A stretch of 63,159 nucleotides of DNA, from assembly GCA_964387985.1 (NCBI GenBank), contig CAYLZG010000008.1, positions 1-63,159 of the forward strand. Direction: 5' to 3'. The DNA is from an uncultured Anaerolineales bacterium (GTDB lineage: Bacteria > Chloroflexota > Anaerolineae > CG2-30-64-16). A model generated the notes under the pieces. It did not search any database. It had not been told where the DNA came from and worked only from the letters and a program-made list of their open reading frames with translations. Below are positions 21,923 to 55,938 of the stretch, piece by piece. The position numbers and the translations under genes were made by a program. Numbering within the stretch: position 1 is the first letter of the stretch; the number at the start of each line of letters is the position of its first letter.

Positions 21923-22533
21923 CTGTATCCGGGACTGGCATCCACAAGCCGTTCCCGCAGCGCCGCACGAGCTCGGGTCAAGAGCGATTCGACCGATTTC
22001 TCCGATCGCGCCATGATCTGCGCGAGCTCACTGACCGCTAACCCATCAATGTACTTGCCCACCAGCACGGTCCGATAATCAACGGGCAGCGCATGAAGAG
22101 CCTGTTCCAGAATCTGCTGCTGCGCTAACTCACCCTCGACCGATGGCGATGCACTGGCCAAATTCCCCAACTCATCAAACGTTTCGGATGAGAGCCGCTG
22201 GCGCGAGCGTTGCTGCTGGCGAACATAGTCCTGAACCTTATGCCGGGCAATAGCGCACAACCAGGTGTACAGGCTGCAGTCGCCCCGGTAACGTGGCAAC
22301 GAGCGTAGCGCCGCGACCATCGTCTCCTGCAAGACATCCTCCACATCCGGCGTGTTGTCACCGCCCATCGTCCGCCAGATGAAACGGTACAGCTTAGGCA
22401 CATAAGTCGCGAACAGGTCTTCAAGCGCGCGCTCATCACCTGCCCGAAGGCGCGCCACATAGGCGCGCTCATCGAGGCACCCCTCTGTTGTGCTATCGCG
22501 TTTCGCATCAGCTGAGATGCCGATAGTGATCAC
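21919..22533 (-). CDS. ECF-type RNA polymerase sigma-70 family factor
   Basis: 204 aa. Region 2 (LEDLFATYVPKLYRFIWRTMG...DVEDVLQETMVAALRSL, YTWLCAIARHKVQDYVR) and region 4 (LPVDYRTVLVGKYIDGLAVSELAQIMARSEKSVESLLTRAR) are both present. The exact start is uncertain; the longest frame begins with GTG. Confidence 0.85.
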   Translation of the reverse strand: MITIGISADAKRDSTTEGCLDERAYVARLRAGDERALEDLFATYVPKLYRFIWRTMGGDNTPDVEDVLQETMVAALRSLPRYRGDCSLYTWLCAIARHKVQDYVRQQQRSRQRLSSETFDELGNLASASPSVEGELAQQQILEQALHALPVDYRTVLVGKYIDGLAVSELAQIMARSEKSVESLLTRARAALRERLVDASPGYR

Positions 22534-36762: not shown

Positions 36763-37041
36763 ATGAAGCGCAGCTATGAAGAAGTCCGATCAGATATCGT
36801 GCTGTTGTTGAGGCGGCTGGCTGATGATTGGGAGTACGATGGTGAGATTACCGAGGACACGCGTATGTTGGCCGATCTCGGATTTGAGTCGCTGGATGTG
36901 GTAGTTCTAGGTTCTGTAATTCAGGAACACTATGACCAAGTGCTGCCCTTCCCCGAGTTTTTCGCAGAAATTGGGCAGCGAGCCGTCGGTGACGTTACCG
37001 TTGGTGAATGGGTAACCTTTGTCTGCGAGCATCTATCATGA
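36763..37041 (+). CDS. stand-alone acyl carrier protein
   Basis: 92 aa, acidic, four-helix-sized. The attachment motif is DLGFES(43)LDVV, with the Ser at 36889-36891. Its stop overlaps the next start (ATGA at 37038-37041). Confidence 0.8.
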   Translation: MKRSYEEVRSDIVLLLRRLADDWEYDGEITEDTRMLADLGFESLDVVVLGSVIQEHYDQVLPFPEFFAEIGQRAVGDVTVGEWVTFVCEHLS

Positions 37042-38642
37042 GAAAGAAGACTGTCCTGATCGGGCTCGATGGCGCGACCTTCGCAGCTCTTGACCCACTA
37101 ATGGACGCCGGTGTGATGCCCTTTCTCAAGGGATTCATGGCGTCAGGGGCCCGTGCGCCACTGCACACAGTGATCCCGGCGTTAACACCGCCAGCCTGGA
37201 CCTCATTGATGACCGGGCGTAGCCCTGGTCAGCATGGCGTATTTGACTTCTTCCGCAAAGTCGCACCGGGAAGTCAGCACGTTCGGTTCAATACCTCGCA
37301 TGACGTAGCAGTTGAGACGATCTGGTCTATGGCCAACCGCTACGGTAAGCAGGTAATAGTTCTCAATTTCCCACTGATGTTTCCGGCTCCTCCTCTGGAT
37401 GGTTACATCGTGCCAGGCTGGATGCCGTGGCGCCAGCTGAGACATGGCTGCCACCCATCTGGGTTATTCGATCGACTTAAGGCTTTGCCAGGCTTCGACG
37501 CACGTGAGCTGGCCATGGATATGACCTTGGAGGAAAAGGCGCTCGAGGGCTGTGATGCCGGGGAGTACGAGGACTGGATACAACTGCATATCCGGCGCGA
37601 GCAACAGTGGCTTCAGATTCTCAGAATGCTCATGCGAGAAGAGCTCTGGGACCTGACCGCAGTCCTCTTTGACGGGGTGGATAAGCTGCAGCACCTCTTC
37701 TGGCGCTTCCTGGACCCGAAACTGGTCCCGGCTGCGCTGCCTGCAGATGAGGAACGCGTGCGGCAAAGCCTCCTGGGTTACTTCCGGCAACTGGATCGCA
37801 TATTGGCGGAGATCATCGAACTCGCAGGAGAGGGCGCGACGGTCGTCCTGGCGTCCGACCACGGCTTTGGTGCTCAGACTGGGACCTTTTTTGTGAACAC
37901 CTGGCTTGAGCAGAACGGCTTCCTGGCATGGGCCGATGGAAAGGTGGTCACACCCGAGCCCGACAAACTAGGAATCTCACAACTCGCGCGTCACGTTTAT
38001 CAGCTCGATTGGTCGCGCACCATGGCCTACGCTTCCACACCCAGCAGCAACGGAATTCACATTGTACAGGATGACGGCAGCGGAATTGGTGTTCCACCCA
38101 CACACTACCAGGACTTCCGAACCCAGTTGATGACAGAACTACTGAGCTTCCGGGATTCTGCAACCGGGCGCCCGGTGGTCTCGCGCATCTGGACGCGTGA
38201 GGAGGCGTTTTCCGGGCCGTTTATGAATCTGGCGCCCGACCTAACTCTGCTTCTGAGCGACGGCGGTCTGCTGTCGATCCTGGCTTCGGATGCTCCTTAT
38301 AAAACGAGACCCCAACCGAGCGGCACACATGGACTGGAAGGCGTTTTTGTGGCGGCGGGGCCGGGGATACGAAAGGGCGTGGTCCTGCCCCAACTGCGGA
38401 TCCTCGACGTGGCGCCGGTGGTGCTCCATAGCCTCGGTCTGCCGGTCCCCGTCGAGTTGGAAGGACGCGTGCCAGCTCAGGCTTATGAAAACAACATAGG
38501 GGTGGACTACGCCCGCCTCTCGTTGCCTTCAGTTCAGCAGCCATCATCAGCTGAGTCTGCTAAAAACGGAGGCGCAGAACTCACTGAAGAAGATGAAAGA
38601 GAACTTCTCAGGCGAATGCGTGCGCTTGGATACATTTCGTAA
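37038..38642 (+). CDS. alkaline-phosphatase-superfamily enzyme (type I phosphodiesterase / nucleotide pyrophosphatase-like)
   Basis: The ATG at 37038 is translationally coupled to the ACP gene. Core metal and nucleophile motifs are present: VLIGLDGATF, ALTPPAWTSLMTG (Thr nucleophile context) and LASDHGFG. Confidence 0.75.
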   Translation: MRKKTVLIGLDGATFAALDPLMDAGVMPFLKGFMASGARAPLHTVIPALTPPAWTSLMTGRSPGQHGVFDFFRKVAPGSQHVRFNTSHDVAVETIWSMANRYGKQVIVLNFPLMFPAPPLDGYIVPGWMPWRQLRHGCHPSGLFDRLKALPGFDARELAMDMTLEEKALEGCDAGEYEDWIQLHIRREQQWLQILRMLMREELWDLTAVLFDGVDKLQHLFWRFLDPKLVPAALPADEERVRQSLLGYFRQLDRILAEIIELAGEGATVVLASDHGFGAQTGTFFVNTWLEQNGFLAWADGKVVTPEPDKLGISQLARHVYQLDWSRTMAYASTPSSNGIHIVQDDGSGIGVPPTHYQDFRTQLMTELLSFRDSATGRPVVSRIWTREEAFSGPFMNLAPDLTLLLSDGGLLSILASDAPYKTRPQPSGTHGLEGVFVAAGPGIRKGVVLPQLRILDVAPVVLHSLGLPVPVELEGRVPAQAYENNIGVDYARLSLPSVQQPSSAESAKNGGAELTEEDERELLRRMRALGYIS

Positions 38643-38673
38643 GGAATCTGTCACCAGAACCGCAGGAGGAGTC

Positions 38674-39495
38674 ATGGCTAAGGCACTTGTCAATGGCCTC
38701 AACATCCACTACTACCAGGTCGGTGAAGGGCCCGATCTTGTTTTGCTCCATGGCCTGACAGGGAATCTGGCAGTATGGCACTTCACATTGGTGCCGCGGC
38801 TCCGCGATGAGTATCGCATCACCACCTACGATCTGCGCGGGCATGGCCGCAGCGATATGCCCGCCACCGGCTACAGCACAGATTACTTGGCAGCAGACCT
38901 GCTCGCCTTGATGGACCACCTCGAGATCGAGAAAGCACATTTGGTGGGTCACAGCTTGGGCGCGGACATTGCCCTGCATCTTGCCATGCTTCATCCTGAA
39001 CGTGTAGACAAGATCGTTGCCATTGAAGCCGGCCTCGCGGCGCTTGTAGAGATGCGCAAACATCCTGACTGGCCTGGTTGGGCCGAATGGGGGCGAGCAC
39101 TGGAACAATATACGGGCATTCGCGCTCCGAGAGAGAAGTGGACCGACGTGCGCTACATGCTCGAGGAAAGCCTGAAAGCGCCGATCTATTTTGGTCCGGC
39201 GCGCGGACTGCCGCGTAAGGGAGATGCTCTGCGAAAGCTGCTGGACACAACGACCCTCGTCGATGATTACCAGGATGCATCTGGCCTGACCGTGGAGACC
39301 ATCTCGGGCATCCGAAACCCCGTATTACTGATGTATGGCGGCGATTCGGCATATCTGGGCACCTATGAAATCCTTTGGGAGGCGTTGCCCAATGTCGACG
39401 CAGTGATCCTCGAAAACTGCGCGCACTTCGGCGCGCTTGAGCGCCCAGATGAAGTAGTTGCCGCTGTACGACCCTTCCTCAAACGCGATAAGTAA
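38674..39495 (+). CDS. alpha/beta-fold hydrolase
   Basis: The ATG at 38674 follows an AGGAGGAG RBS. It has an HG oxyanion motif (LLHGLTGN), a nucleophile elbow (GHSLGA) and a C-terminal His context (CAHFG). Confidence 0.8.
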   Translation: MAKALVNGLNIHYYQVGEGPDLVLLHGLTGNLAVWHFTLVPRLRDEYRITTYDLRGHGRSDMPATGYSTDYLAADLLALMDHLEIEKAHLVGHSLGADIALHLAMLHPERVDKIVAIEAGLAALVEMRKHPDWPGWAEWGRALEQYTGIRAPREKWTDVRYMLEESLKAPIYFGPARGLPRKGDALRKLLDTTTLVDDYQDASGLTVETISGIRNPVLLMYGGDSAYLGTYEILWEALPNVDAVILENCAHFGALERPDEVVAAVRPFLKRDK

Positions 39496-39514
39496 CGAAC
39501 ACAGACCAAGGTGA

Positions 39515-40387
39515 ATGGATGTGACAATGCAAGACGCTATTCTGATCACCGGCGCCTCCACGGGTCTGGGCCTGGAAACGGCAGTCTACCTTGCGCAGCG
39601 AGGGTTCTGCGTCTATGCTACCATGCGAGACTTGGACAATCGAGCGGCATTGGATGATGCCGCCGCGAAGCAAGGGGTGAACCTCAATGTCCTGAAACTG
39701 GATATCTCAAACCAGGGCGATATAGAGTCTGCCGTGGCCAAGGTCGTAGAAGAGTCAGGCAGCATCTATGGCCTTGTAAATAATGCTGGGATTGGACTAC
39801 GAGGCTACTTCGAGGACCTTTCTGACGCTGAAATCCGTGAGCTCTTTGAGGTTAATGTATTCGGTACAATGGCTGTGACTCGCGCCGTGCTGCCATTCAT
39901 GCGTCAGGCCAAGCGTGGTCGCATCATCATCATCAGTTCGGTCGGCGGTCGAATTGCATCCCTGGCTGTCAGCGCTTACTGCGCCACCAAATTCGCCCAG
40001 GAAGGGTTTGGTGAGGCTCTTGCCCAGGAGGTTGTTCCGTTTGGGATATATGTGTCTCTAGTAGAGCCTGCCATCATTAAGACCGAGCGGTGGAGTACCA
40101 ATCGGGCAGTTGCCCAGGGAGCTCTGAAACCAACCAGCCCGTACAGCGGATGGTTCCGCGTATCGGAGCGCCTCGCTGACCGACTGGTGGATACCTCTCC
40201 TACGAAGGCGATGGACGTGGCAAAGTGCGTCTATACTATTCTTACATCGTCGCGTCCTCGGCTGCGTTATGGTGTCGGGAGCCGTGCCAGGCTCGTTACG
40301 AGTCTGAGGCGCTACGTGCCGGAAGCCCTTTTCGAGCGTCTGTACTTCGGTGAAGCCGTGCGGCGAGTGACCAAGCCCAGAGGATAG
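39515..40387 (+). CDS. short-chain dehydrogenase/reductase (classical SDR)
   Basis: TGASTGLG cofactor motif, NNAG, and the catalytic S...YCATK motif. Confidence 0.85.
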   Translation: MDVTMQDAILITGASTGLGLETAVYLAQRGFCVYATMRDLDNRAALDDAAAKQGVNLNVLKLDISNQGDIESAVAKVVEESGSIYGLVNNAGIGLRGYFEDLSDAEIRELFEVNVFGTMAVTRAVLPFMRQAKRGRIIIISSVGGRIASLAVSAYCATKFAQEGFGEALAQEVVPFGIYVSLVEPAIIKTERWSTNRAVAQGALKPTSPYSGWFRVSERLADRLVDTSPTKAMDVAKCVYTILTSSRPRLRYGVGSRARLVTSLRRYVPEALFERLYFGEAVRRVTKPRG

Positions 40388-40404
40388 GCCAGGAGCTGAC
40401 TCTC

Positions 40405-41694
40405 GTGGCGCGATTTCTTTTCACTGTCTGGCCCTTTGCGGGTCACTATTACCCGGATATCGCCATTGCTCATGCATTGCGAGAGCGGGGCCATGCGGTT
40501 GCGTTCTACACCGGCGCGCGCGCACTTGCAACCATTGAGAATGAAGGCTTTAAGTGTTTTCCCTTCAGATGCGTTGACGAAGCGACGATTGAACGTCTGA
40601 TGTTCGCCCGACAACGGCTGTCGCTAGATTGGAGTAACGCCGGCCGACTGAGCACTACGCTACGCTCGTGGTTGGTCGACACAATTCCACTTCAGATCGA
40701 AGACCAAGAGGAAATCCTGGCTACCTGGCGACCGGATGTTGTTGCCTGTGACCCGACGATGTGGGGTCCCATCCTCATACTGCACGAAAAACTCGGCATT
40801 CCGGTCGCCGTGTCCTCATTCATTCCAGCGTGTCTGGTGCCGGGACCAGATGCACCCCCTTTTGGTCTGGGCCTGCCGCGACCGCACAACTGGAAAACCC
40901 GTCTCATCGCCAAGACCGTTGCCTGGGCAACTGAGTTCCTGGCATTTGGCTTCAGACGAGCCGCGCAAGCAATGCGTGAACAGTACGGACTTCCGCCCCT
41001 GACAATGTCGGTGACGGCCTTCACCGGACAAATGCCGCTTTATTTGGTGCCCAGCGTTCCTGAGTTCGACTACCAACGCCGGGATTTACCCTCTTCCGTT
41101 CACTATACCGGAGCTTGTCTGTGGAATAGACCGCATGGAGAGCCATCGCCAGGTTGGCTTGCCACACTGCCGCGCGACCGGCCCTGGGTTCACGTAACCG
41201 AGGGGACGATGCACGTCGAGAACCCATTCCTGCTGCGCGCGGCTGCTCAGGGCCTGGCAAACCTGCATATGGAAATTGTGATGACGGCAGCCAGTGATTA
41301 CGAACCGCATGAATTAGACCTGGGGCCCCGGGCCCCCAATATCCATGTGGCCCGCTGGATATCGCATAGCGACCTGTTACCCAATACCGCAGTCATAGTA
41401 ACCACCGGTGGTGCGGGGACCATCATGGCTGCGCTGGCTGCGGGAGTGCCCATTATCGTGGTGCCGACCGAGTGGGATAAGCCCGAGAATGCACAGCGCG
41501 TGGTGGAAATCGGTGCAGGGTTACGGCTTGAGCCACGGCTCTGCACACCGGAACGTCTCCGTGCTGCGGTCGAACGCGTGTTGTGTGATCCTACCTATCG
41601 CACGAACGCCGGCCGGATGGCGAATCTGCTGAGAAGTTACGGTGGGCCGGCACGTGCGGCAGAACTCCTCGAAGAACTTGGAAAGGCCAGTTGA
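40405..41694 (+). CDS. GT1-family (MGT/UDP-glycosyltransferase-like) glycosyltransferase
   Basis: GTG start. N-terminal FTVWPFAGHYYP and a C-terminal nucleotide-sugar motif (VTTGGAGTIMAALAAGVPIIVVPTEWDKPENA). Confidence 0.85.
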   Translation: MARFLFTVWPFAGHYYPDIAIAHALRERGHAVAFYTGARALATIENEGFKCFPFRCVDEATIERLMFARQRLSLDWSNAGRLSTTLRSWLVDTIPLQIEDQEEILATWRPDVVACDPTMWGPILILHEKLGIPVAVSSFIPACLVPGPDAPPFGLGLPRPHNWKTRLIAKTVAWATEFLAFGFRRAAQAMREQYGLPPLTMSVTAFTGQMPLYLVPSVPEFDYQRRDLPSSVHYTGACLWNRPHGEPSPGWLATLPRDRPWVHVTEGTMHVENPFLLRAAAQGLANLHMEIVMTAASDYEPHELDLGPRAPNIHVARWISHSDLLPNTAVIVTTGGAGTIMAALAAGVPIIVVPTEWDKPENAQRVVEIGAGLRLEPRLCTPERLRAAVERVLCDPTYRTNAGRMANLLRSYGGPARAAELLEELGKAS

Positions 41695-43847
41695 TGCATC
41701 TGCTACTCACTACCCGACTGGGAAAAGCTATCCGGATCGCGCTGCTCTGTATAGTAACCCTGTCTTTAGCTAAGTCCGTCTCGGCTGATCCGGCAGGGCC
41801 ATTGCTTCCTACTCAGTTTCGGTTGGCTACGCCACAAGGTTTCGGTGACCGGCAAAACAGCATGGCATGGTCGATGCAGTGGTGGCGTGGAAAGCTCTAT
41901 ATCGGAACGGGGCGCTCATACGGCTGTGTCCGCCAGGCAATCATGAGTACCTACTTCTCCTTGATTAAGTATCCACCGCTTGATCCCGAGCTGGAATGCA
42001 CCGCCTCAGCGCAAGACCTGATGCTCCAAGGGGAGATCTGGCGTTTCACGCCAGAGAGCAACACGTGGGAGCGCGTCTACCAGTCGCCACTAGTACCGCT
42101 CGGTGATACGGGCAAAACGGTCGCCGTCGATGTGGGCTACCGGTCCATGACCATTTTCACTGAATCTGACGGAACCGAGGCGCTCTATGTAGGCGGCTTT
42201 ACCTCGCGCGACTTCAATCCCGGTGTCCCGCCGCCCAGGATTTTGCGCACAACAGACGGCGCAAATTTCGAGGCTGTCCCGCAAGACGTAGGGACTCTAT
42301 TGGGGGATCTGGATGAGCTGGAAGGCATCACGATTACCGGATTCAACCGGATGGAGGTCCACAAGGGGCGCCTCTATGTGATCGCAGGTGGCGCCTTTGG
42401 GCATGGCGCGTTGCTGGAGGCCGAGAAACCGGCAGACGGTAACGATAGCTTTCAGATTGTGACACCGGCAGGAATGACGATCACCGGCGTTGCCTCGTAC
42501 AATGGCCAGCTTTATGTGGCGCAAGGCTCCAATCCACTACCTGACCGGCCGCCTTTCACCGTCTATCGAACGTACCCGACAGGGAGTCCTCCGTACGGCT
42601 ATATCCCAGTTCTGAGGTCAGCAGGGTACCGTGAGAATGGCAGCAAATCTGTTGCCACCCTGTACGTGTTCAACAATAGGCTGTGGGTGGGCACGAACCG
42701 ACCGGTGGAACTCCTGCGCATCAACCCGGACAACTCGTGGGACCTCATCATGGGCACGGGCCGCCTTACTCCAGAGGGGCCCAAATATCCACTCAGCGGC
42801 ATCGGTGATGGCTTCGCATGGCCTCTGAACATCCATATCCACCAGATGCAGGGCCACAACGGTTGGCTGTATGCAGGCACAAACGACCAGAGCAGTTCGG
42901 GAGTATGGCATCTCGTGCCATGGATCGAGGATCTATTGAGAGCCAACTACGGCTTTGACCTGTACGCTACGCAGGAGGGCTGGTACTTCTACCTGATCAC
43001 CAGAACAGGCCTTGAGCGTTACTCACTCAGCTATTCGGCCCGGACTATGGCATCTACGCCTGGTGGCATGTATCTGGGAACCATGAACGATAGCTATGGC
43101 TTGCAGTTGTGGCGGGGAACCGTGGGAAAAGATGAACTCTTTTTGCCGCTTCTTTCAGCCGGTGGCACCACACCTGTGCGAAGTGCAGCCGGTCTCAATT
43201 CAACCGAATTCCGGATTCGAACTGCAGATCTCGCTGCACCAGCCAGATTGCAGCTCGATAATTCTGCTCGCGGCCTGATCCTGTCCTGGGAACCCGTCGA
43301 AGGTGGGGTAACATATGGGGTTTACCGATCGGATTTTGCTGTAAACGAAGACTTGGCGGCGCTTGCGCCTGAGTTGGCCGAGGCCTTTCCCGGTCCTTTC
43401 CGACGCATCGCCTCAACCGGTAAAGCCCACTATCTGGATGTGACCGCAATACCGGGACAGACTTACCAGTACTACGTCGTCACAGAACAAGGGAACAGGA
43501 CATCGCGCGGGTCGAACTTCGTTCAAGCCCCAGTGGTCACCGAACCGGCCACAGTAAAGGCCTTGCAGGAGTTGATTGCTGCTTGGGCCACACACTCTGT
43601 CGCGGCGGAGAAAAGTTCAACTCGTTTGTTTCGAGCGTCTTTTGAAGGCCTCAACGAGGCCCTTCTGTCGGGTGACTTAAGCGAAGCTGCCAGCAGGCAA
43701 CAAGAGCTCAGCGAAATCCTGGCGGGCGATTCGAGTGGTTTGCCCTCTTGGAGAGCAACGGATATCGCAGCGCTGATGGAGAGATTTGAGCGACGGTTGC
43801 ATCTCGCGCGGATGGGCTTGATTGACATCCGGGAACTACTAAAGTAG
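41694..43847 (+). CDS. secreted hypothetical protein (repeat/propeller-like N-terminal region, FN3-like domain, helical C-terminus)
   Basis: The ATG at 41694 overlaps the GT gene's TGA (41692-41694). It has a signal peptide (IALLCIVTLSLAKSVSA). The FN3-like block is LILSWEPVEGGVTYGVYRS...YQYYVV. I recognise no enzymatic motif. Confidence 0.55.
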   Translation: MHLLLTTRLGKAIRIALLCIVTLSLAKSVSADPAGPLLPTQFRLATPQGFGDRQNSMAWSMQWWRGKLYIGTGRSYGCVRQAIMSTYFSLIKYPPLDPELECTASAQDLMLQGEIWRFTPESNTWERVYQSPLVPLGDTGKTVAVDVGYRSMTIFTESDGTEALYVGGFTSRDFNPGVPPPRILRTTDGANFEAVPQDVGTLLGDLDELEGITITGFNRMEVHKGRLYVIAGGAFGHGALLEAEKPADGNDSFQIVTPAGMTITGVASYNGQLYVAQGSNPLPDRPPFTVYRTYPTGSPPYGYIPVLRSAGYRENGSKSVATLYVFNNRLWVGTNRPVELLRINPDNSWDLIMGTGRLTPEGPKYPLSGIGDGFAWPLNIHIHQMQGHNGWLYAGTNDQSSSGVWHLVPWIEDLLRANYGFDLYATQEGWYFYLITRTGLERYSLSYSARTMASTPGGMYLGTMNDSYGLQLWRGTVGKDELFLPLLSAGGTTPVRSAAGLNSTEFRIRTADLAAPARLQLDNSARGLILSWEPVEGGVTYGVYRSDFAVNEDLAALAPELAEAFPGPFRRIASTGKAHYLDVTAIPGQTYQYYVVTEQGNRTSRGSNFVQAPVVTEPATVKALQELIAAWATHSVAAEKSSTRLFRASFEGLNEALLSGDLSEAASRQQELSEILAGDSSGLPSWRATDIAALMERFERRLHLARMGLIDIRELLK

Positions 43848-43865
43848 CTGCAGGGGGAATCAGGA

Positions 43866-44879
43866 ATGTGCACGGGAGGGAGAGCCTCCGTATCAACGGA
43901 CCAGATACGAGGGCGGGACGAACCGTACATGGATCGGCTGGCAGAAGTGAAGGTCGATCCGATTTTCATCATTGGAGACCACAGATCTGGTACAACCTTG
44001 CTCTACCAGCTTCTGGACGCCTCCAAGTGTTTCAATGTGGTTACTGCCTACCACCTGATTCACTACCATGAACTTCTATACAATCACTTTCAAGGTAAGG
44101 AGCTGCTTGCCAAGGAATCGCTGCATCGGCGTTTTGCTGCTGCAGGCCTGACTGACCGGCTCATTGACGGGGTGCGGGTTACGCCTGAGCTTCCAGAGGA
44201 GTATGGGTTCAGGCTGAAAGCCTCCGGACCACGGCCCCAGGTACGGCGCGAAACAGTAACGCCTCTGGTTGAGTTGTTCAGAAAAGTTCAACTCATTACC
44301 GTTCCTGAGCGCCCGCTCCTGCTCAAGAATCCCTGGGATGCTCTGGGCTTCGTTCGCGTGAAACAGCTCTTTCCCGCTGCACGCTTCGTCTTTATCCATC
44401 GTCATCCAGTGTGTGTGATCAGTTCCCAACTCAAAGCGCTGCGTTCACTCTTTGCTGAGAAAAACGGCTATGTAGCACTTATCGATCCGTGGTACGAGCA
44501 GATATTCAACAGACCGATCCAACTGGCGGTGATAAGGCTGCTGAGCGGGAAACGCTTTGGCATCGGTTTAGCTACTACGATGAGACACGTTACGAAAGTC
44601 GCGAGCTATTACCTTCGTAACATTGATGTTCTCTCTCCTGAGGAATATGCAGTCATAAGGTATGAGGATTTGTGCGAGGCGCCTGATGTCACGATCGGGA
44701 ACCTGCTATCATTTCTTCAGGCACAACCGTCCTCGTCGGGCGATTATGCCAGCTACATTCGCTCTCGGTCTACCTCTCTGCTTCCAGAAGTAATCGCGAG
44801 GGAGCAGCGTGTTCTCAAAAGGCTGGCTATCTACTGTGACCGGTTCGGATACCAGCGCACGCAGGTCCTGGTAGGTTAG
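43866..44879 (+). CDS. sulfotransferase-family protein
   Basis: A 5'-PSB-like PAPS loop (FIIGDHRSGTTLLYQLL) and a 3'-PB-like region (FVFIHRHPVCVISS). An alternative start is the ATG at 43929. Confidence 0.7.
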   Translation: MCTGGRASVSTDQIRGRDEPYMDRLAEVKVDPIFIIGDHRSGTTLLYQLLDASKCFNVVTAYHLIHYHELLYNHFQGKELLAKESLHRRFAAAGLTDRLIDGVRVTPELPEEYGFRLKASGPRPQVRRETVTPLVELFRKVQLITVPERPLLLKNPWDALGFVRVKQLFPAARFVFIHRHPVCVISSQLKALRSLFAEKNGYVALIDPWYEQIFNRPIQLAVIRLLSGKRFGIGLATTMRHVTKVASYYLRNIDVLSPEEYAVIRYEDLCEAPDVTIGNLLSFLQAQPSSSGDYASYIRSRSTSLLPEVIAREQRVLKRLAIYCDRFGYQRTQVLVG

Positions 44880-44883
44880 GAGT

Positions 44884-46203
44884 TTGGACGTGCATTCTAG
44901 CCGGTTTTTTGCTCTGAAAGGTGCCTGCCGCTCCCTCAGGCTGCCAGGCACGCGTAGCCGCGCTTCAAACAACCATCCCGGTCCCCGGCCTCGCATTGGC
45001 TCCATCCTGCTGATCTGTGCTCTCTCTATCTTTGTTGCAGGGTGCCGGGTTTCATCCAGACCAGCCAAAACTATCAGTCCAACCCCCACATCGCGTAGTG
45101 CAGCGACAGTGCCACACGTTCCTACCATCTCGGCTACCGAGCTGCCGGCCAAGAGTCCTCCCATCCAAGGCAGGCCTGTCGTCGAGAGCATTACGCCCCT
45201 GGTTACCGATGTCGGCGGACGTGTGGACTGGCTGCCGAAAAGCGAACTTATCGCCTATGACAAGTTAAGCAGGTCCGGCTACTTTGATGTCTGGACCATG
45301 CGAGCAGATGGTTCCGCACAGAAATGCCTGACCTGTGCCAATAAGGAGGTTCCACAGCGCCACAAAGGCAATCCGGCCTGGCATCCTTCTGGCAAGTACA
45401 TCCTGCTCCAGGCCCTCGATGACAGTATCACAGGGCCTCTGGAGAATACGGAGGCCTATCGGATCTATACCAATCCCGGTGCTGGTTTCGGCAGTACTCT
45501 TTGGTTGATAACCTCGGACGGAAGACAGGCATGGCAGATGACTAGCAGCAGTGATGGGCTTGGCATCCTGCACCCTCACTTTTCCCGTACCGGTGATCAG
45601 GTGGTCTGGGCTCGGATGACGAGTACTGACTTACTGCCTTTGGGGACCTGGGACATAATGATAGCAGACTTCGTTATTGAAGGGGGCACTCCCGCACTTC
45701 GCCATCCACGAAGTCTGGTGCCTGGAGATTTCCAATGGTACGAAACACATGAGTTTACTTGGGACGACCAGGGGCTCTTGTTTACGGCCATGCCTCGTCG
45801 GGGCAATGCGAACGACTTTGATCTTTACCGGCTGGATCTGGCTAGCGGCGCCGTAATGCCGCTGACTTCCAGCGCAGTGAAGGCTTGGGACGAGCACGGC
45901 CACCTGTTTCCCGACGGCCAGCATATCGTCTGGATATCGAGTATGGGCGCCATTGAGAACGTGCCGCTCAATCAGTTGAACGTGAAGACAGACTTGTGGC
46001 TCATGGACGTCAATGGCGATAACCAGGTCAAGCTTACCGGTTTCAACGACCCCTCATCTCCCCACTACCGACAAGCGCGGGTCATTGCCTCCGACATAAG
46101 TTTGAGCTCCGACGGGACGCGGCTAGTTGCCTATCTGCAGGTCGATTCTACCGCAAGCAGGCCGGGCGAAATCGACTTGATCCAGATCTCTTGGACTCAG
46201 TGA
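44884..46203 (+). CDS. lipoprotein with TolB/PD40-like beta-propeller
   Basis: Lipobox-like LSIFVAGC. Repeated propeller-blade motifs (FDVWTMRADGS, NPAWHPSGKYILL, LWLITSDGRQ, PHFSRTGDQVVW, LWLMDVNGDN). The start is ambiguous: TTG at 44884 or GTG at 44890, after TAGGAG. Confidence 0.65.
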   Translation: MDVHSSRFFALKGACRSLRLPGTRSRASNNHPGPRPRIGSILLICALSIFVAGCRVSSRPAKTISPTPTSRSAATVPHVPTISATELPAKSPPIQGRPVVESITPLVTDVGGRVDWLPKSELIAYDKLSRSGYFDVWTMRADGSAQKCLTCANKEVPQRHKGNPAWHPSGKYILLQALDDSITGPLENTEAYRIYTNPGAGFGSTLWLITSDGRQAWQMTSSSDGLGILHPHFSRTGDQVVWARMTSTDLLPLGTWDIMIADFVIEGGTPALRHPRSLVPGDFQWYETHEFTWDDQGLLFTAMPRRGNANDFDLYRLDLASGAVMPLTSSAVKAWDEHGHLFPDGQHIVWISSMGAIENVPLNQLNVKTDLWLMDVNGDNQVKLTGFNDPSSPHYRQARVIASDISLSSDGTRLVAYLQVDSTASRPGEIDLIQISWTQ

Positions 46204-46209
46204 GGGATC

Positions 46210-46983
46210 ATGAGACAATCAATTATCGATGATCGGTACGAACGCAAGATGCTGCACCCCTGGACGCAGGAATTGTATGGGTACAGCGATTTCTATAACT
46301 TCGGCTATTGGCAGGAACATACGCGAGATCAAAGGGAAGCCTGTGAGAATCTCGTCGATAAACTGATGAGCTACGTGCCGCGTCGCGAGGGGCTGATTGT
46401 CGATGTAGCATGCGGCATGGGGGCGACCACGCGACATCTGCTGCACTACTACCAACCAAGCCAGGTGATCGGCATTAATATCTCCAGGCAGCAGCTCCAG
46501 CGTAGTCAAATGAACGCTCCAGGCTGCACGTTCACAATGATGGATGCTACGCAGCTTGCGTTTCCCGATCAGAGTATCGATAACATGATTTGCGTTGAGG
46601 CAGCATTCCATTTCAACACTCGAGCGTCATTTCTCGCGGAAGCATTTCGAGTTCTAAAACCAGGAGGTCACGTCGTCCTGTCGGACATTCTGACTTATTC
46701 CTGGGCGGCAAGGGTGAACTTCCGGACGCCAATGCACAACTATGTCGCAGATCTCGATCAATATGTGGCGACCTACCGCGACATTGGCTTCGATGAAGTT
46801 CAGGTGCTAGATGCCACAACCGAGTGTTGGCGTCGCTTTCTGGCCAATGCCAGGAGGTTCAGACAACAAAAAGTGCACGCGAAAGAGATGAGCCGGGGTG
46901 CCGCTCTGGGGATATCTTTCCGTCAGAGAGTCGCAGCGGCTGGACTGCATTACTACCTGCTCGCGTCAGCACTGAAGCCATAA
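46210..46983 (+). CDS. class I SAM-dependent methyltransferase
   Basis: Motif I VDVACGMGATT, plus LKPGGHVVLSD. The N-terminal DFYNFGYW block resembles lipid and natural-product methyltransferases. Confidence 0.85.
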   Translation: MRQSIIDDRYERKMLHPWTQELYGYSDFYNFGYWQEHTRDQREACENLVDKLMSYVPRREGLIVDVACGMGATTRHLLHYYQPSQVIGINISRQQLQRSQMNAPGCTFTMMDATQLAFPDQSIDNMICVEAAFHFNTRASFLAEAFRVLKPGGHVVLSDILTYSWAARVNFRTPMHNYVADLDQYVATYRDIGFDEVQVLDATTECWRRFLANARRFRQQKVHAKEMSRGAALGISFRQRVAAAGLHYYLLASALKP

Positions 46984-47002
46984 GAGCGATGGAAGGACCC
47001 GC

Positions 47003-48367
47003 ATGAGAAGAGAATTCAACTCCTCATTCCTAACGCATATGACGTCGTTTGTTGCGACCGTGCTTGCGGTATTTTGTCTCTTGCTGCTTGCCTGGCACCC
47101 TATCTCTGCTGCTCCTCTCGAGCCTCCGTCTGGGGATCGTTGCAAGTGGTCCGGTGAAACCTACGCTGACTTTTACGTTCCACCGGAGTTAGGCGACGTC
47201 ACAGCGGAGCGCTTAGGGGAGATTGTGCGCGCAGAGCACGTACTAAGCATGACTCGCGAGCAAGTTGCAACCATGGTTGGCTTGTCCTCCAGTCCCTATG
47301 GCGCGGCAATATATCGCATTCTATATGTCAGTCAAGATACCTTGGGCCAGTATCACACCGTGTCGGGTTTGATCGTTGTGCCGGTTGGAATCGTGCCGGC
47401 AGGAGGCTTCCCGATCGTTGCAGCCGGCCATCCGACGAGTGGCTTGGCTGATTCGTGTGCGCCATCGCGCAACTCGTCACCGCCCATCTTGTTGCTGCCC
47501 TGGGTCGCTCAAGGCTACGTTGTGTCTGCTTCAGACTATCAGGGGCTTGGTACACCTGGCCTGCACCCATATGGGGTGGGTGCGGTAGCCGGCCAAAACC
47601 TGCTAGATGCAGCCAGAGCCGCGCTGCGCTTCTGCGACAGCGAGCACGACGTGGCCCAAAGCGCCAGCAACCGGATCATCCTGGAGGGCCACTCCCAGGG
47701 GGGACAGGCGGCTCTCTTCGCCCACCAGATATGGCCCGCACACGCGCCAGAGCTGAATATCCTAGGCACTATCGCCTTCGCTCCGGGTTCAGAAATGCAT
47801 CTCCTGGCCAAGGAAATGGCCGATAGCTACCTTTCAACGCTTGCCGCACCCGTAGCTCTGGCCATGTATGCACAATCAGAGTATTACGGGGCAGCTGCGG
47901 ACCTCGCGTCGTGGATGAAGGAGCCATACGTGTCGGAGTTGCCACTGCGCGTCGAACAGGAGTGCATTGTGCCCCTGGTCGCATGGTTTGGATGGCGACC
48001 CTCGAACGTTTTCCCCAACCTGCTATTACAGTCCGTGGCACAAGACGAATGGGAAAAACTTGAACCGTGGAACACCTATCTGGAAATGAATACACCAGGG
48101 AACTATCATAGCGACGTCCCTGTTCTTGTCATCCACGGCGGTGCGGATACAACGGTGCCTGTGAAGGCGAGCGAGTGGCTGAGTATCCGGTTGTGCCATC
48201 ACGAGACACCCACAAAACTCAGCATCTACCCGGATGGCAGACATAACGCACCCATATATGCCATGCCTGAAGCCCTTCAGTGGGCGGCCGATCGGCTTGC
48301 AGGCAAGCCGCCGGTGGGTAGCTGTATTGTCCCAACGTCGGTGTACCTGCCGCTCGTATCACATTAG
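47003..48367 (+). CDS. secreted lipase/esterase (alpha/beta hydrolase) with YLPLVSH tail
   Basis: GGAAGGA RBS. Signal anchor (VATVLAVFCLLLLAW...ISA). Nucleophile elbow EGHSQGG. The C-terminus is ...PTSVYLPLVSH. Confidence 0.7.
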   Translation: MRREFNSSFLTHMTSFVATVLAVFCLLLLAWHPISAAPLEPPSGDRCKWSGETYADFYVPPELGDVTAERLGEIVRAEHVLSMTREQVATMVGLSSSPYGAAIYRILYVSQDTLGQYHTVSGLIVVPVGIVPAGGFPIVAAGHPTSGLADSCAPSRNSSPPILLLPWVAQGYVVSASDYQGLGTPGLHPYGVGAVAGQNLLDAARAALRFCDSEHDVAQSASNRIILEGHSQGGQAALFAHQIWPAHAPELNILGTIAFAPGSEMHLLAKEMADSYLSTLAAPVALAMYAQSEYYGAAADLASWMKEPYVSELPLRVEQECIVPLVAWFGWRPSNVFPNLLLQSVAQDEWEKLEPWNTYLEMNTPGNYHSDVPVLVIHGGADTTVPVKASEWLSIRLCHHETPTKLSIYPDGRHNAPIYAMPEALQWAADRLAGKPPVGSCIVPTSVYLPLVSH

Positions 48368-48540
48368 CGTGCCGAGTAATCACAGTTGAGGTGTCGATCA
48401 GCGGAGCATTTCGACAGCGAGGTTGCTGCGTGATAACCGGAGCCAGCGAAGTCCAGACGTGCGGTCGAGGCCCCCGAGCTAGGGTAAGAGAACGTGTTTG
48501 CAGCAAGGCAGATTGAGACAATTTCCTGAACAGGTGATTG

Positions 48541-49998
48541 ATGACAACGAATTATCCGAATTACAGTTTGACCGCACCGGCACGACGTCAGGCTTCCACG
48601 ACCACTAAGTTGCTTTACGGCGTCGGTGATATCGCGACTGCCATCAAGTCCGTACTATTCAACCTCTTCACTTTGTTCTTCTATACTTCGGTGATAGGAC
48701 TGCCGGGAGCGTTGGTGGGGATTGCGACCTCGATTGGGCTCATGGCCGATGCATTTCTTGCCCCTTATCTGGGGCACATCTCCGATAACTCCCGGTTACG
48801 CCTGGGACGTCGCCACAGCTTTATGCTTGCTGGCGGACTATGCATGGGTATCAGTCTATGGAGCTTCTTCAGCCCACCTCCGAATCTGTCAGAAGCTGCC
48901 CTTCTTGTCTGGCTGCTCATCACAGGCAGCTTGGTACGCATCACCGCGTCGGTATTCGGCGTACCCTACTTTGCGTTGGGTGCAGAACTCAGTCAAGACT
49001 ATGAGGGTCGCACACAGGTTACAGCCATACGCGGCGGCCTCGCACTGCTTGGAACGCTACTGACCGCTGGGTTGTCGTTCGTTTTGTTCTTTCCGAGCAC
49101 TGGTTCTGGCCTCGATCCAAAGCTCAACCCCAGCGCCTACTCGGACATGGGGCTGGCTGCAGGAGTCGCTGTTACAGCCGTCGCGCTGATTGCGTACGTC
49201 GCTACTCTGCCCTGGCGGTCGGCAGCTAGCCCCAGAAATGACGCCCGAACGATGCCGATGGGTTTTCTGACCAGCTTTCGACAGATCCTGCGCTTGGGCG
49301 CCTTCCGACCCATATTCCTGTCAGCCTCGCTGTTCTTCTTCGCCGTGGTTGTAAACGGGGTGTTGATGATTCATTTCGTCACCTACTACGCCGGAGTCAC
49401 GGACAGCCGCGCACTGAGCAGCCTGCAGGTGGCGCTCTACCTGGGTAGCCTGGCAGGGGTTCTAAGCTGGTTCATACTCAACAAAAGGTTCTCGATCGAA
49501 AAACAGCGGCTCTATGTTGCTTCGGCGATTCTCACCGGTCTACTTATGCTTGGCGCCAGTGTGCTTCTCGGCGAAGGGAATATGCTGGGTACCGGTAATG
49601 TAACCGCGCTCACGGTCGGGCATAGTCTGGCAGGGCTTGTGAGCAGCGTACTCTGGTTCATCCCAACGTCCATGGTCGCTGACACGATAGACCAGGATGA
49701 ACTAATGACCGGTCAGCGCCGAGAAGGCGTGTTCTTCGGGCTCTTCTTCTTCGGACAAAAGCTCGCCACCGCACTCGCCGCGCTAACGGCTGGCTTCCTG
49801 CTTGACTGGTTCGCTGGACTTGTGCCGGGCACCGTGCAGCAACCAGCGCTCACAATCCAGCGTATCGGGTTGATCTACAGCCTCCTGCCCGCGCTTGCGT
49901 TGTTTGCTGCTGCCGCCTTAATGATGCGCTATCCGCTCAACCGGGGCCTGGTGGCAGCAATCCGAGCAGAACTGGATGGCCGGTTTGCAACGCAGTGA
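48541..49998 (+). CDS. MFS transporter, glycoside-pentoside-hexuronide (GPH)-like
   Basis: The ATG at 48541 follows AGGTGA. About 12 hydrophobic segments. The loop 2-3 motif is GHISDNSRLRLGRRHSF. It resembles MelB/LplT-type carriers. Confidence 0.8.
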   Translation: MTTNYPNYSLTAPARRQASTTTKLLYGVGDIATAIKSVLFNLFTLFFYTSVIGLPGALVGIATSIGLMADAFLAPYLGHISDNSRLRLGRRHSFMLAGGLCMGISLWSFFSPPPNLSEAALLVWLLITGSLVRITASVFGVPYFALGAELSQDYEGRTQVTAIRGGLALLGTLLTAGLSFVLFFPSTGSGLDPKLNPSAYSDMGLAAGVAVTAVALIAYVATLPWRSAASPRNDARTMPMGFLTSFRQILRLGAFRPIFLSASLFFFAVVVNGVLMIHFVTYYAGVTDSRALSSLQVALYLGSLAGVLSWFILNKRFSIEKQRLYVASAILTGLLMLGASVLLGEGNMLGTGNVTALTVGHSLAGLVSSVLWFIPTSMVADTIDQDELMTGQRREGVFFGLFFFGQKLATALAALTAGFLLDWFAGLVPGTVQQPALTIQRIGLIYSLLPALALFAAAALMMRYPLNRGLVAAIRAELDGRFATQ

Positions 49999-50103
49999 CC
50001 CGCATCTGCGCCACCACGGTCTTCGACCTGTCACAGCGCATCGAGTCGACACAATCTGGGCTTTTCTGCTGCGGAACGGCAGAAATCCTAATTGGAGGCA
50101 AAC

Positions 50104-51348
50104 ATGAAGCATAGAGCTCTCTACCATCGATTGGTCCTCGTGACCGTTGTCTTGGCGTTATTGTTGGCGTCGAACGCCGCAGCCAGCGTGTCTGGCTTGA
50201 GTACTATCGTCAGGACCCAGGAGCCCGTGGTGATCCTGGGCAGCGAGTTGCCCGCGTTCCTGGGTGTCCCGGTGACGCAATTGCACGTTTACGCTTTCGA
50301 TGCAAACCAATGGGTGCGGCTCCCCGCCCAGGTAGATGAGATCGATCTGGGGGACAAGTATGTGGAATTAGAAGACGGCTTACTCGATGCCAATGACCAG
50401 ATCGTTTTCATGGCGAGGGACCTCGGTGAGTTATCGGGAGGACGCGCGCCGGCAATCGGCGACGGGAGCCTTGCGCTCTCTTGGTACGAGGCCAAAGTCA
50501 GCGATCCAACACATTCCGGAGCTCAGGGCTGGGCCTACGTTGTGCGAACTGGCTCTGCGCCTCCAGGGGGCACTCCGGACTACGTAAGCTGGAATGCGGC
50601 AGAGCACCGGATCATGGGGAGCAACTACACGCTGGGCTTTGAAAGTCCGCGGCCATGGCTAGACTACCTCGCTCTTGGCTCGAGTGGCGTCGACATCCTT
50701 GACCGCGCACCTAAATACCGTTTCTGTCGGGCGTTGCTCTGTTTGAATGAGAACCTGGCCCCGGATACGCCGGACGGACTGGTCAAAGATGGACCGGTGC
50801 GCGTCATCCTGCGCGAGGGGCGCATCATAGCTTATGGATGGATGGCGTCTTCTGAGATCCCGCTCACGATTCCGTCCGTCGTCGCGCCTGACTGGCTGCG
50901 CTTCTCTGTTGATCTCAACTCTGCCGCGACAGGAGCCCTCTATTATAACCAGGCTGTGCCGGGTGGCGTCTTAGTCGACGGTTCGCCGGATGCTGTACCC
51001 GAATTGCCTTTGAGCACCTGGAATCAGATCAGCCATAGCACGGGAACGTTTGTGCATGTGTTTGACGTTAGCGAGTTAGGCGGCGCCCCGATCAACTACT
51101 ATCTTGACAGTTCTGCCATCGACAACCAAGATTCCGGTGACAAGATGCACTTCGGTGATTCGGGGGTCCGGGTGGATATGCCGAACCTGAGCTTTACATT
51201 CCGAACCGTGTTCTACTTCCTGAACGGTCCGCAGCCCAATGTGGGTGCAGACTATGCCAGCTATTACAACCAGCCGCTCCAGGTCGACACGCAGTGGCAA
51301 CAGCTGATTCTGCCACCGCGTCAGTATTTGCCACTGGTGCTGCAGTGA
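50104..51348 (+). CDS. secreted hypothetical protein with YLPLVLQ tail
   Basis: The ATG at 50104 lies 5 nt after GGAGG. It has a signal peptide (LVLVTVVLALLLASNAAASV). I see no recognisable catalytic motif. The C-terminus is ...LPPRQYLPLVLQ. Confidence 0.55.
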   Translation: MKHRALYHRLVLVTVVLALLLASNAAASVSGLSTIVRTQEPVVILGSELPAFLGVPVTQLHVYAFDANQWVRLPAQVDEIDLGDKYVELEDGLLDANDQIVFMARDLGELSGGRAPAIGDGSLALSWYEAKVSDPTHSGAQGWAYVVRTGSAPPGGTPDYVSWNAAEHRIMGSNYTLGFESPRPWLDYLALGSSGVDILDRAPKYRFCRALLCLNENLAPDTPDGLVKDGPVRVILREGRIIAYGWMASSEIPLTIPSVVAPDWLRFSVDLNSAATGALYYNQAVPGGVLVDGSPDAVPELPLSTWNQISHSTGTFVHVFDVSELGGAPINYYLDSSAIDNQDSGDKMHFGDSGVRVDMPNLSFTFRTVFYFLNGPQPNVGADYASYYNQPLQVDTQWQQLILPPRQYLPLVLQ

Positions 51349-51474
51349 CTTCGTCACAGTTTGGCTTACTCTCCAGGCCAGTTCCTGTATGGCATGTGAG
51401 ACCAACTGGATCTGCAACTTCCATGGAGCATTGATGGCGCCAGGCGTTCAGGATAGCAACGACGGATCAATACT

Positions 51475-52611: not shown

Positions 52612-52614
52612 GTC

Positions 52615-53622: not shown

Positions 53623-53629
53623 TTGGCCC

Positions 53630-54601: not shown

Positions 54602-54604
54602 TCT

Positions 54605-55921: not shown

Positions 55922-55938
55922 GGTGGCCGGAGAAAGCG

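Follow-up and report, generated by a model that had tools for sequence, protein, structure and literature searches.

What happens to a lipid chain once the polyketide synthase (PKS) that built it has finished? The question is raised by a 63,159-nucleotide (nt) stretch of DNA from an uncultured Anaerolineales bacterium (Chloroflexota; GenBank assembly GCA_964387985.1, contig CAYLZG010000008.1), the whole of which we call the window. Here two PKS megasynthase genes, PKS1 and PKS2, are followed by 11 genes on the same strand (36763 to 49998), as defined by open reading frames (ORFs), translations and Pfam matches. They encode a discrete acyl carrier protein (ACP), an alkaline phosphatase superfamily enzyme (AlkP), an alpha/beta hydrolase, a short-chain dehydrogenase/reductase (SDR), a GT1-family glycosyltransferase, a 717-residue extracytoplasmic protein, a 3'-phosphoadenosine-5'-phosphosulfate (PAPS)-type sulfotransferase, a beta-propeller lipoprotein, an S-adenosylmethionine (SAM)-dependent methyltransferase, a secreted lipase and a major facilitator superfamily (MFS) transporter (Table 1). 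The original prediction had offered two readings of these genes: either they make a glycosylated lipid that is further sulfated and methylated, or the sulfotransferase and the hydrolase release the chain together in trans, as in CurM. The first is better supported than the second. With moderate confidence, and judging from sequence comparison, we propose that the region from 36763 to 57402 is the post-assembly half of a conserved two-PKS lipid cluster that would serve chain release, provision of a hydroxyl, sugar attachment and export of a glycolipid to the envelope.

The argument begins with distribution. A scan of one genome per GTDB species returned 178 carriers, and 80 loci were retrieved; related loci retrieved for comparison are designated by L-numbers (L001, L085 and so on). 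The cluster family, with at least 178 genomes at the species level, spans eight or more phyla, including Chloroflexota (Dehalococcoidia, Anaerolineae, Ardenticatenaceae, Thermomicrobiaceae and Chloroflexia), Acidobacteriota (Bryobacteraceae, Vicinamibacterales and Luteitalea), Thermodesulfobacteriota, Planctomycetota, Solirubrobacterales and some Gamma- and Alphaproteobacteria. The gene order is usually exactly PKS1-PKS2-ACP-AlkP-hydrolase-SDR-GT1-propeller, co-linear in dozens of species across many phyla, and this run is also present in a cultured planctomycete, Paludisphaera soli JC670 (L025).

We scored gene presence by tblastn of all window proteins against the retrieved loci, using the 49 "full-flank" loci that extend 9 kb or more to each side; these are minimum counts, as flanks reach 10 kb at most and many contigs are short. 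Homologues of PKS1/PKS2 were present in 44 of the 49 loci, the ACP in 48, the hydrolase in 44, the SDR in 38, GT1 in 31, the 717-residue propeller protein in 30 and the MFS transporter in 17. The PD40-like lipoprotein was present in five. Because the sulfotransferase, methyltransferase and lipase occurred in only six, two and none of the 49, respectively, they are lineage-specific accessories outside the conserved pathway; no lipase homologue was found in 168 related loci. The nearest organizational twin of the window is L085, and the order SDR-GT1-propeller-sulfotransferase-PD40-methyltransferase is repeated in L090, which has an orthologue of the methyltransferase (49%). Other relatives carry second SDRs and unrelated methyltransferases (L001 and L169) or FAAL-type adenylating enzymes with an outer-membrane barrel (L060), and in L017, L169 and L170 giant CARDB/DUF11 surface proteins with CARDB repeats are inserted between AlkP and the hydrolase. 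One Bryobacterales genome (L074, 9687 to 15667) holds an ACP-AlkP-hydrolase-sulfotransferase-SDR-GT1 cassette flanked by housekeeping genes (seryl-tRNA synthetase, adenylosuccinate synthetase and PheST); 10 kb of flanking sequence show no PKS. Hence the six genes are able to form a unit apart from the synthases.

The most conserved part of the block is the ACP-AlkP-hydrolase run, and AlkP is its most conserved protein. The ACP and AlkP co-occur in 48 of the 49 full-flank genomes, which span many phyla. Their genes overlap by 4 nt (ATGA or GTGA) in exactly this way in 30 of 72 related loci and lie within about 8 nt in roughly 50; since the junction is exact or nearly so in most of the 72, we regard the overlap as a conserved feature and not a product of chance. 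The gap from AlkP to the hydrolase is mostly 1 to 20 nt in related loci, and the phosphopantetheine serine of the ACP (Ser43) is invariant in 74 homologues. AlkP itself has 2661 homologues at E ≤ 1e-30, the best being 57 to 70% identical over the full 534 residues. Those with a named source come from Chloroflexi, Dehalococcoidia, Deltaproteobacteria and Acidobacteriota, and the closest GTDB relative is a Dehalococcoidia metagenome-assembled genome (MAG; 60%). Named homologues belong to Chloroflexi, Anaerolineae and Caldilineales.

In an alignment of 14 AlkP homologues, D11, T50 (within LTPPAWTS), D274-H275 and H431 are invariant, so that all metal ligands of the nucleotide pyrophosphatase/phosphodiesterase (NPP) type and the threonine nucleophile, the bimetal site and Thr that mark PF01663, are retained. 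This bears out the predicted NPP-family assignment with a Thr nucleophile context. Searches of the PDB and by Foldseek matched only PhnA, NPP and ENPP6/7, with PhnA, ENPP6 and Xac NPP at E values of about 1e-13 in Foldseek; the AlphaFold2 (AF2) model is of mediocre quality (pLDDT 69.5) and gives a generic NPP/PhnA fold only. Compared with that branch (Xac NPP, ENPP6, ENPP7 and phosphonoacetate hydrolase), the window AlkP has the same fold, bimetal ligands and nucleophilic Thr. It differs in being only 12 to 18% identical, with similarity mainly in the N-terminal 110 residues, in its cytoplasmic location, in a large helical insertion, in a conserved C-terminal tail, RLRALGY(I/V)E, and in its obligate pairing with an ACP. 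A second, distant AlkP paralogue (about 470 to 495 residues, about 25% identical, with a weak sulfatase-family signal) accompanies GT1, propeller and sulfotransferase genes in L003 (6224 to 7711), L060 (19627 to 21027) and L087 (3407 to 4819).

What might this enzyme do beside a carrier protein? The modeled fold and predicted active site indicate phosphodiester or phosphomonoester chemistry. Together with the obligate ACP pairing and the position directly after the phosphopantetheinyl transferase (PPTase) domain of PKS2, they lead us to speculate that the substrate of AlkP is the phosphopantetheine arm or a phospho-intermediate. Our best guess is that it either carries out phosphodiester chemistry on the arm, in release or in recycling, or strips off a phospho group and so uncovers the acceptor. 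To our knowledge, no function is on record for a pair of an ACP and an NPP-type AlkP, and we know of no characterized member of this AlkP group. We raise, as a tentative possibility more than an expectation, that the ACP, AlkP and hydrolase perform a previously undescribed carrier-protein offloading or head-group chemistry, by cleavage of the phosphopantetheine phosphodiester or by way of a phospho-intermediate, and that this chemistry defines an envelope glycolipid family spread over many phyla. If so, the family would span Chloroflexota, Acidobacteriota, Planctomycetota, Thermodesulfobacteriota, Solirubrobacterales and some Proteobacteria, and its products, sulfated and methylated in the window lineage, would so far have been overlooked or be recorded only as orphan environmental lipids.

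How the chain leaves the synthase depends on what PKS2 hands over. PKS1 is a polyunsaturated fatty acid (PUFA) synthase-type enzyme with a PfaD-like enoylreductase (ER), comprising an NMO-type ER, ketosynthase (KS), acyltransferase (AT), ACP, ketoreductase (KR) and PS-DH dehydratase (DH) domains. The KS domains of both synthases carry a Cys-His-His triad and both AT domains a GHSxG motif. PKS2 has a DH-like region, PS-DH being annotated on its homologues in L085 and L170, and neither Pfam nor inspection of the sequence revealed a KR in this protein. PKS2 would thus leave a beta-keto or enoyl thioester, because its domains run KS-AT-ACP-DH without a KR. Pfam and inspection likewise found no thioesterase (TE) or thioester-reductase (NAD_binding_4/TER) domain in PKS1, PKS2 or the tailoring genes, among which the 290-residue classical SDR is the sole reductase. 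The hydrolase is a Ser-His-Asp enzyme that scores 111.9 bits against PF00561 and 21.5 bits against the thioesterase family PF00975, under the gathering score of 26.4. Its closest solved relatives are esterases and epoxide hydrolases, with esterase 5egn as the top PDB match. It is a probable thioester-cleaving or transacylating release enzyme, which would take the chain off its carrier by hydrolysis or transacylation.

The lack of a TE or reductase domain calls for some unusual release mechanism, and this is where the CurM/OLS proposal has its appeal. By that route the sulfotransferase would sulfate a beta-hydroxyl on the ACP-bound chain, the hydrolase would cleave the thioester, and decarboxylative elimination would leave a terminal alkene. 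The window and the terminal ACP-ST-TE (ST, sulfotransferase) of CurM/OLS do have in common that a PKS is accompanied by a Sulfotransfer_3 enzyme of the PAPS type and a hydrolase of the alpha/beta fold, and both are without a classical release domain elsewhere; the order ACP-AlkP-hydrolase-sulfotransferase is found in L032, L073 and L074; and when the window sulfotransferase was the single query, its best PDB match was the CurM ST domain, albeit weakly (E 0.0016, 21 bits, over three short patches). The affinity is not specific, however. With a family profile, again through short-patch alignments, tyrosylprotein sulfotransferase 1 (TPST1) came first (2e-9), followed by the CurM ST (1.5e-8), TPST2 (2e-7) and the OLS ST (7e-7). 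Most clusters keep the ACP and the hydrolase (48 and 44 of the 49) without the sulfotransferase found in six, and release therefore cannot depend on it. Moreover, the hydrolase is an Abhydrolase_1 enzyme (PF00561) instead of a PF00975 thioesterase, and PKS2 has no KR to make the beta-hydroxyl, although a trans-acting one is conceivable. Unlike the ST of CurM/OLS, that of the window is a discrete, accessory protein of variable placement, located downstream of the ACP in the window, with 6.9 kb and five genes in between. Its linkage to GT1 also holds where the examined sequence contains no PKS. We consider the sulfation-dependent release put forward in the original prediction to be highly improbable.

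If not in release, where does the sulfotransferase act? The enzyme belongs to PF13469, and its R19-S20-G21-T22-T23 (RSGTT) and R158/S166 PAPS-binding motifs, that is, the 5'-phosphosulfate loop and the Arg/Ser of the 3'-phosphate site, are invariant in 29 family members, in agreement with its prediction as a PAPS-type enzyme. The family profile gave further remote matches to the uncharacterized PDB entries 2zq5 and 2z6v. In the window, as in L003 and L017, the sulfotransferase gene comes after that of the propeller; it comes after the SDR in L016 and directly after the hydrolase in L032, L073 and L074, whereas in L060 it precedes PKS1. A metagenome scan anchored on the sulfotransferase yielded 80 further loci, 25 of them flanked by 3 kb or more on each side, and among these 25 we counted GT1-family genes in 12, PD40-like genes in six, propeller genes in five, a PKS in four and AlkP in two. 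Across all sulfotransferase loci, GT1 lies within 300 nt of the sulfotransferase in 18 of the 32 loci having one, compared with three of 12 for the hydrolase and two of 10 for the ACP. Many of these adjacent GT1s are only 22 to 31% identical to that of the window, and several GT1-sulfotransferase loci show no PKS in the sequence examined, for example L088 (Pleurocapsales) and L126, where the order is DegT aminotransferase, unannotated ORF, LpxD-like acyltransferase, GT1, sulfotransferase, PapA-like acyltransferase and LCP. Polysaccharide loci (Wzx, GT4, FkbM) host other family members in L002 and L100. Because GT1 and polysaccharide neighbors recur and proximity to an ACP or hydrolase is rare, the conserved partner of the sulfotransferase is sugar-transfer machinery, not a carrier protein or a thioesterase. 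A neighbor-joining tree of 91 sulfotransferases, which carries no support values, and is used here qualitatively, shows a rough division between sequences of the cluster type and those whose neighbors are distant GT1 or polysaccharide genes. Most likely the enzyme decorates a sugar rather than aiding chain release.

Two further observations concern sulfate supply and removal. In L087 (7294 to 10987), a fused PUA/ATP-sulfurylase/adenylylsulfate (APS)-kinase gene and a gene of the CysQ-like inositol-phosphatase family lie directly upstream of the sulfotransferase homologue and overlap it; by annotation, the pair appears to be a self-contained module for PAPS supply and for removal of the spent adenosine 3',5'-bisphosphate (PAP). 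Other relatives encode PAPS-independent arylsulfotransferases (PF05935; L001, 13205 to 14923, and L086, 13290 to 15170) or have sulfatases (PF00884) in or beside the cluster (L170, 20374 to 21605, and L072, 2729 to 4066), and sulfate-ester chemistry thus recurs in the family by way of non-homologous enzymes.

The tyrosylprotein matches raise another target for the sulfotransferase. A beta-propeller lipoprotein gene lies directly downstream of it in the window and in L001, L003, L085, L086 and L087, with the sulfotransferase stop overlapping the lipoprotein start in L001 and L087, and genes for ABC and HlyD export follow downstream. TPST1 and TPST2 are among the top enzymes in the profile search of the PDB. 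The enzyme might accordingly sulfate tyrosines in the manner of RaxST or TPST, on the propeller lipoprotein or another exported protein, and leave the lipid untouched. Against this, the TPSTs are matched only distantly, at about 40 bits, and no better than other Sulfotransfer_3 enzymes, many family members adjoin GT1 or polysaccharide genes without any PD40-like gene, and neither a gene for a RaxX-like peptide nor a peptidase-type ABC exporter was seen. We judge protein sulfation quite unlikely.

The remaining tailoring proteins fit a glycolipid. Nearest to the SDR among solved structures is 17beta-hydroxysteroid dehydrogenase 1 (3e-33), ahead of FabG; its match to the NCBIfam model of 3-ketodihydrosphingosine reductase (KdsR) is below cutoff. 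The GT1 enzyme finds its top PDB matches among natural-product and small-molecule glycosyltransferases (CalG4, CalG1, Kcn28 and OleD), and PDB entry 9ke1, named "Rhamnosyltransferase", is matched at 9e-11. For the methyltransferase the best solved match is 3bus, which its depositors named "Methyltransferase" and which we take to be RebM, a sugar O-methyltransferase; MitM was also matched, as was, more weakly, a D-glucose O-methyltransferase, and NCBIfam models of lipid O-methyltransferases score it below cutoff. The 717-residue protein belongs to no Pfam or NCBIfam family, and the named ones of its 283 homologues are all "hypothetical protein". Its AF2 model (pLDDT 87) comprises an N-terminal helix, a beta-propeller, an Ig/FN3-like sandwich and a C-terminal helical bundle, for which Foldseek returned generic beta-propellers only. 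The MFS transporter scores below the TIGR00792 cutoff, and in NCBIfam the ATPases further downstream are nearest the DrrA daunorubicin-resistance subfamily, with a permease of the ABC-2/DrrB-like type. Across the tailoring proteins, no NCBIfam curated cutoff was reached, so none receives an equivalog name.

Taken together, these assignments suggest the following route. Once the hydrolase has taken the beta-keto or enoyl chain from its carrier, the 17beta-hydroxysteroid dehydrogenase-like SDR would reduce a lipid ketone to a secondary alcohol, which the natural-product-type GT1 would glycosylate. Since there is no thioester-reductase domain or gene, such a ketoreductase-made secondary hydroxyl is a more likely sugar acceptor than a terminal alcohol. 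In the window lineage the sulfotransferase would then most likely O-sulfate the sugar, a hydroxyl left free on the completed glycolipid being a less likely target; the methyltransferase, whose solved relatives include the glucose O-methyltransferase, would most likely O-methylate the sugar; and the secreted lipase may contribute a third optional decoration. The MFS_2/GPH transporter and the ABC-2/HlyD system would move the product outward, where the two secreted propeller proteins and the lipase may bind it or act on it. The predicted glycosylated, sulfated and methylated lipid is thus supported in part, by the GT1, the solved relatives of the methyltransferase, the linkage of sulfotransferase to GT1 and the gene order repeated in L085 and L090; its heterocyst-glycolipid logic is not, as reductive release is missing.

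Several points weigh against this route. The SDR could instead act as a trans-KR on the ACP-bound chain, and without a KR to serve it the DH-like domain of PKS2 lacks an explanation. Two core genes, those of AlkP and the 717-residue propeller protein, are left without a firm role. About a third of the full-flank loci have no GT1 within 10 kb, so glycosylation may not be universal, and no GT1 lies near the sulfotransferase in L060 (within 10-kb flanks) or in L032, where the contig ends about 1.7 kb past the sulfotransferase. Finally, exporters of the DrrA/ABC-2 and MFS types, like a GT1 of natural-product type, would suit a secreted specialized metabolite as well as an envelope lipid.

This last point can be put as an explanation in its own right: the same enzymes would make a secreted polyketide glycoside, an antibiotic or a signal, with the transporters serving export and self-protection. 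The GT1 is indeed nearest to the enediyne and macrolide glycosyltransferases CalG and OleD, the ATPases are of the DrrA subfamily alongside an ABC-2/DrrB-like permease, and the decoration varies by lineage (sulfotransferase, several methyltransferase families, FAAL, PapA-like enzymes, arylsulfotransferase and sulfatase), as is typical of specialized metabolism. A core so widely and evenly spread, with AlkP 50 to 70% identical across at least eight phyla and synteny kept, would be more usual for a physiological lipid; the cluster also includes several partners that are secreted or are lipoproteins, along with an MFS transporter of the GPH/lysolipid type; and the PKS, with its two modules and an ER of the PfaD type, is similar to synthases of secondary lipids. 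On this evidence we hold a specialized metabolite to be unlikely, and an envelope glycolipid remains our preferred product.

How does the proposed glycolipid pathway compare with known ones? The heterocyst glycolipid system of Nostocales (hglE/F/G/D/C/A/B, hglT, devBCA/hgdBC) likewise combines a PUFA synthase-type PKS (PfaD-like ER, KS-AT-ACP-KR-DH) with a subsequent glycosyltransferase and an ABC/HlyD-type exporter, and its product, an envelope glycolipid with a long alkyl chain, is of the class that we propose for the window cluster. In contrast to hgl, the window has no HglB-type thioester-reductase release to a fatty alcohol, its synthases form two fused modules ending in a PPTase, and its exporter is of the ABC-2/DrrA type, with scores below cutoff for both DevA (113.6 versus 295.8 bits) and DevB (64.4 versus 129 bits). 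The ABC-2/HlyD exporter is a functional analogue only of DevBCA/HgdBC. We know of no hgl island with an ACP-AlkP-hydrolase triad, a 717-residue propeller protein or a sulfotransferase. Because the reductive release domain is absent, the window cluster is not a heterocyst glycolipid system. For hgl relatives outside the cyanobacteria, one paper (PMC11804610) gives no description beyond PUFA-type PKSs.

A reductase-free way to release and glycosylate a chain is offered, by analogy, by the rhamnolipid pathway. There, the SDR RhlG, the alpha/beta-hydrolase acyltransferase RhlA, which acts on hydroxyacyl-ACP, and the GT1 rhamnosyltransferase RhlB work together with a linked MFS transporter. The window matches it by enzyme class (a carrier-bound acyl chain, an alpha/beta-fold enzyme, SDR, GT1 and MFS), and differs in drawing its chain from a dedicated PKS and in adding the obligate AlkP and the extracytoplasmic propeller proteins. 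For the sulfated branch, the sulfolipid-1 locus of Mycobacterium tuberculosis (Stf0, Pks2, PapA1/PapA2 and MmpL8) provides a comparison: its product, like that proposed here, is a sulfated glycolipid of the envelope, assembled from an acyl chain that a PKS supplies and a sugar on which a PAPS sulfotransferase acts. PapA-like condensation-domain acyltransferases adjoin the sulfotransferase in the relatives L003 and L126. The window, unlike sulfolipid-1, has neither a PapA-like gene nor MmpL, and its sugar would be joined to a lipid hydroxyl by GT1 instead of being acylated.

A full-text literature search found no paper describing the window cluster, and types A to T of Shulse and Allen (2011) do not include its architecture. 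Only a handful of secondary-lipid synthase products have been characterized, according to a 2026 survey (PMC13291983). This family of bacterial lipid clusters is widespread and apparently undescribed. We place the window cluster, by its gene content, among presumptive PKS-derived glycolipid clusters and propose a sulfated and methylated product. We considered a link to the long-chain 1,2-diols of Thermomicrobium, for which the sole support is one Thermomicrobiaceae MAG with the cluster (L047), and did not adopt it; a link to the long-chain hydroxy fatty acids of Isosphaeraceae was also considered, was unconfirmed, and is not used here. As the family is common in hard-to-culture bacteria of soil, sediment and the subsurface, the identity of the product could tie orphan environmental lipids to their producers. 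It would also assign a function to many genes annotated as "hypothetical" or "alkaline phosphatase family" (AlkP alone has more than 2600 close relatives), and work on the ACP-AlkP pair might bring to light a new mode of product removal from carrier proteins. In practical terms, the sulfotransferase is best treated as a glycoside-decorating enzyme and not as a CurM-type olefin-forming device.

The layout of the block (Table 1) agrees in gene content and order with what had been predicted downstream of the megasynthases, with some corrections. The plus strand carries every gene from 22850 to 57402. Both predicted overlaps are present: ATGA at 37038 to 37041, whose upstream partner is the 92-residue ACP gene, which the earlier gene list lacked, and not a megasynthase; and TGATG at 41692 to 41696, where the GT1 stop meets the ATG of the 717-residue protein. 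Elsewhere, gaps said to be 3 to 30 nt measured 4 to 28 nt; the exceptions are a gap of 173 nt from the lipase to the MFS transporter and one of 81 nt ahead of the sulfotransferase start at 43929. The "TolB-like" lipoprotein does have a lipobox, VAGC, and its PD40/TolB matches are weak and under curated cutoffs. The block does not end at 50000; it runs on to 57402 through a secreted protein, an ABC-2 permease, ATPases and HlyD adaptors, and these downstream genes (50104 to 57402) recur in L085, L001 and L073.

Table 1. Coordinates of the genes of the two-PKS cluster in the window
Feature	Position (nt)	Strand	Evidence
PKS1, ER(NMO)-KS-AT-ACP-KR-DH megasynthase	22850..31246	+	Pfam; KS Cys-His-His, AT GHSYG
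PKS2, KS-AT-ACP-DH-like-PPTase megasynthase	31289..36739	+	Pfam and sequence inspection
Discrete ACP, 92 aa	36763..37041	+	PF00550, E 6e-5
AlkP-superfamily NPP/PhnA-like metalloenzyme, 534 residues, Thr50 nucleophile	37038..38642	+	PF01663, E 1e-35, 124 bits (gathering score 23)
Alpha/beta-fold serine hydrolase, GHSLG	38671..39495 (start 38671 supported by homologues)	+	PF00561, E 5e-32
Classical SDR ketoreductase, 290 aa	39515..40387	+	PF00106, E 5e-49
GT1-family glycosyltransferase, EryCIII/UDPGT-like	40405..41694	+	PF06722 and PF00201
Extracytoplasmic protein, 717 aa, N-terminal hydrophobic helix and beta-propeller	41694..43847	+	AF2 model; no Pfam/NCBIfam family
PAPS-type sulfotransferase	43929..44879 (ORF opens at 43866; start 43929 supported by homologues)	+	PF13469, E 4e-20, 73 bits (gathering score 27)
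Beta-propeller lipoprotein, weakly PD40/Tricorn-like	44884..46203	+	VAGC lipobox; weak PD40/TolB matches
SAM-dependent methyltransferase	46210..46983	+	PF08241
Secreted LIP-family lipase/esterase	47003..48367	+	PF03583, E 1e-25; signal peptide by inspection
MFS_2/GPH-family transporter, candidate glycolipid flippase or exporter	48541..49998	+	PF13347, E 3e-76
Secreted protein without assigned family	50104..51348	+	Pfam, NCBIfam
ABC-2 permease, two DrrA-like ATPases, two HlyD-type adaptors	within 50104..57402, after the secreted protein	+	Pfam, NCBIfam

A scan of 36 to 52 kb for promoters and terminators found no more of them than in shuffled sequence, and no terminator between genes; it adds nothing for or against co-transcription beyond the gene spacing. 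The 173-nt gap between the lipase and MFS genes has no stable structure (z-score 0.12), and an Rfam scan of the whole window returned zero matches. Divergent from PKS1, and separated from it by a 317-nt intergenic region, is a minus-strand pair that could regulate the cluster: an extracytoplasmic function (ECF) sigma factor (21919 to 22533) and a FecR-like anti-sigma protein with Ig-like domains (20465 to 21922).

Other genes lie on either side. Just past the exporter genes, the plus strand encodes a secreted protein (57513 to 58964) with matches to propellers of the virginiamycin-B-lyase/SGL type below the Pfam cutoff, and a minus-strand ORF of 1320 residues (59125 to 63087) has no family match beyond a faint MopE-like motif. 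On the other flank, a minus-strand run of large surface-protein genes (9716 to 20430) carries cohesin, dockerin, bacterial TSP3, SdrD-B, SpaA and DUF11 domains, a cellulosome-like module architecture adjoining the lipid cluster.

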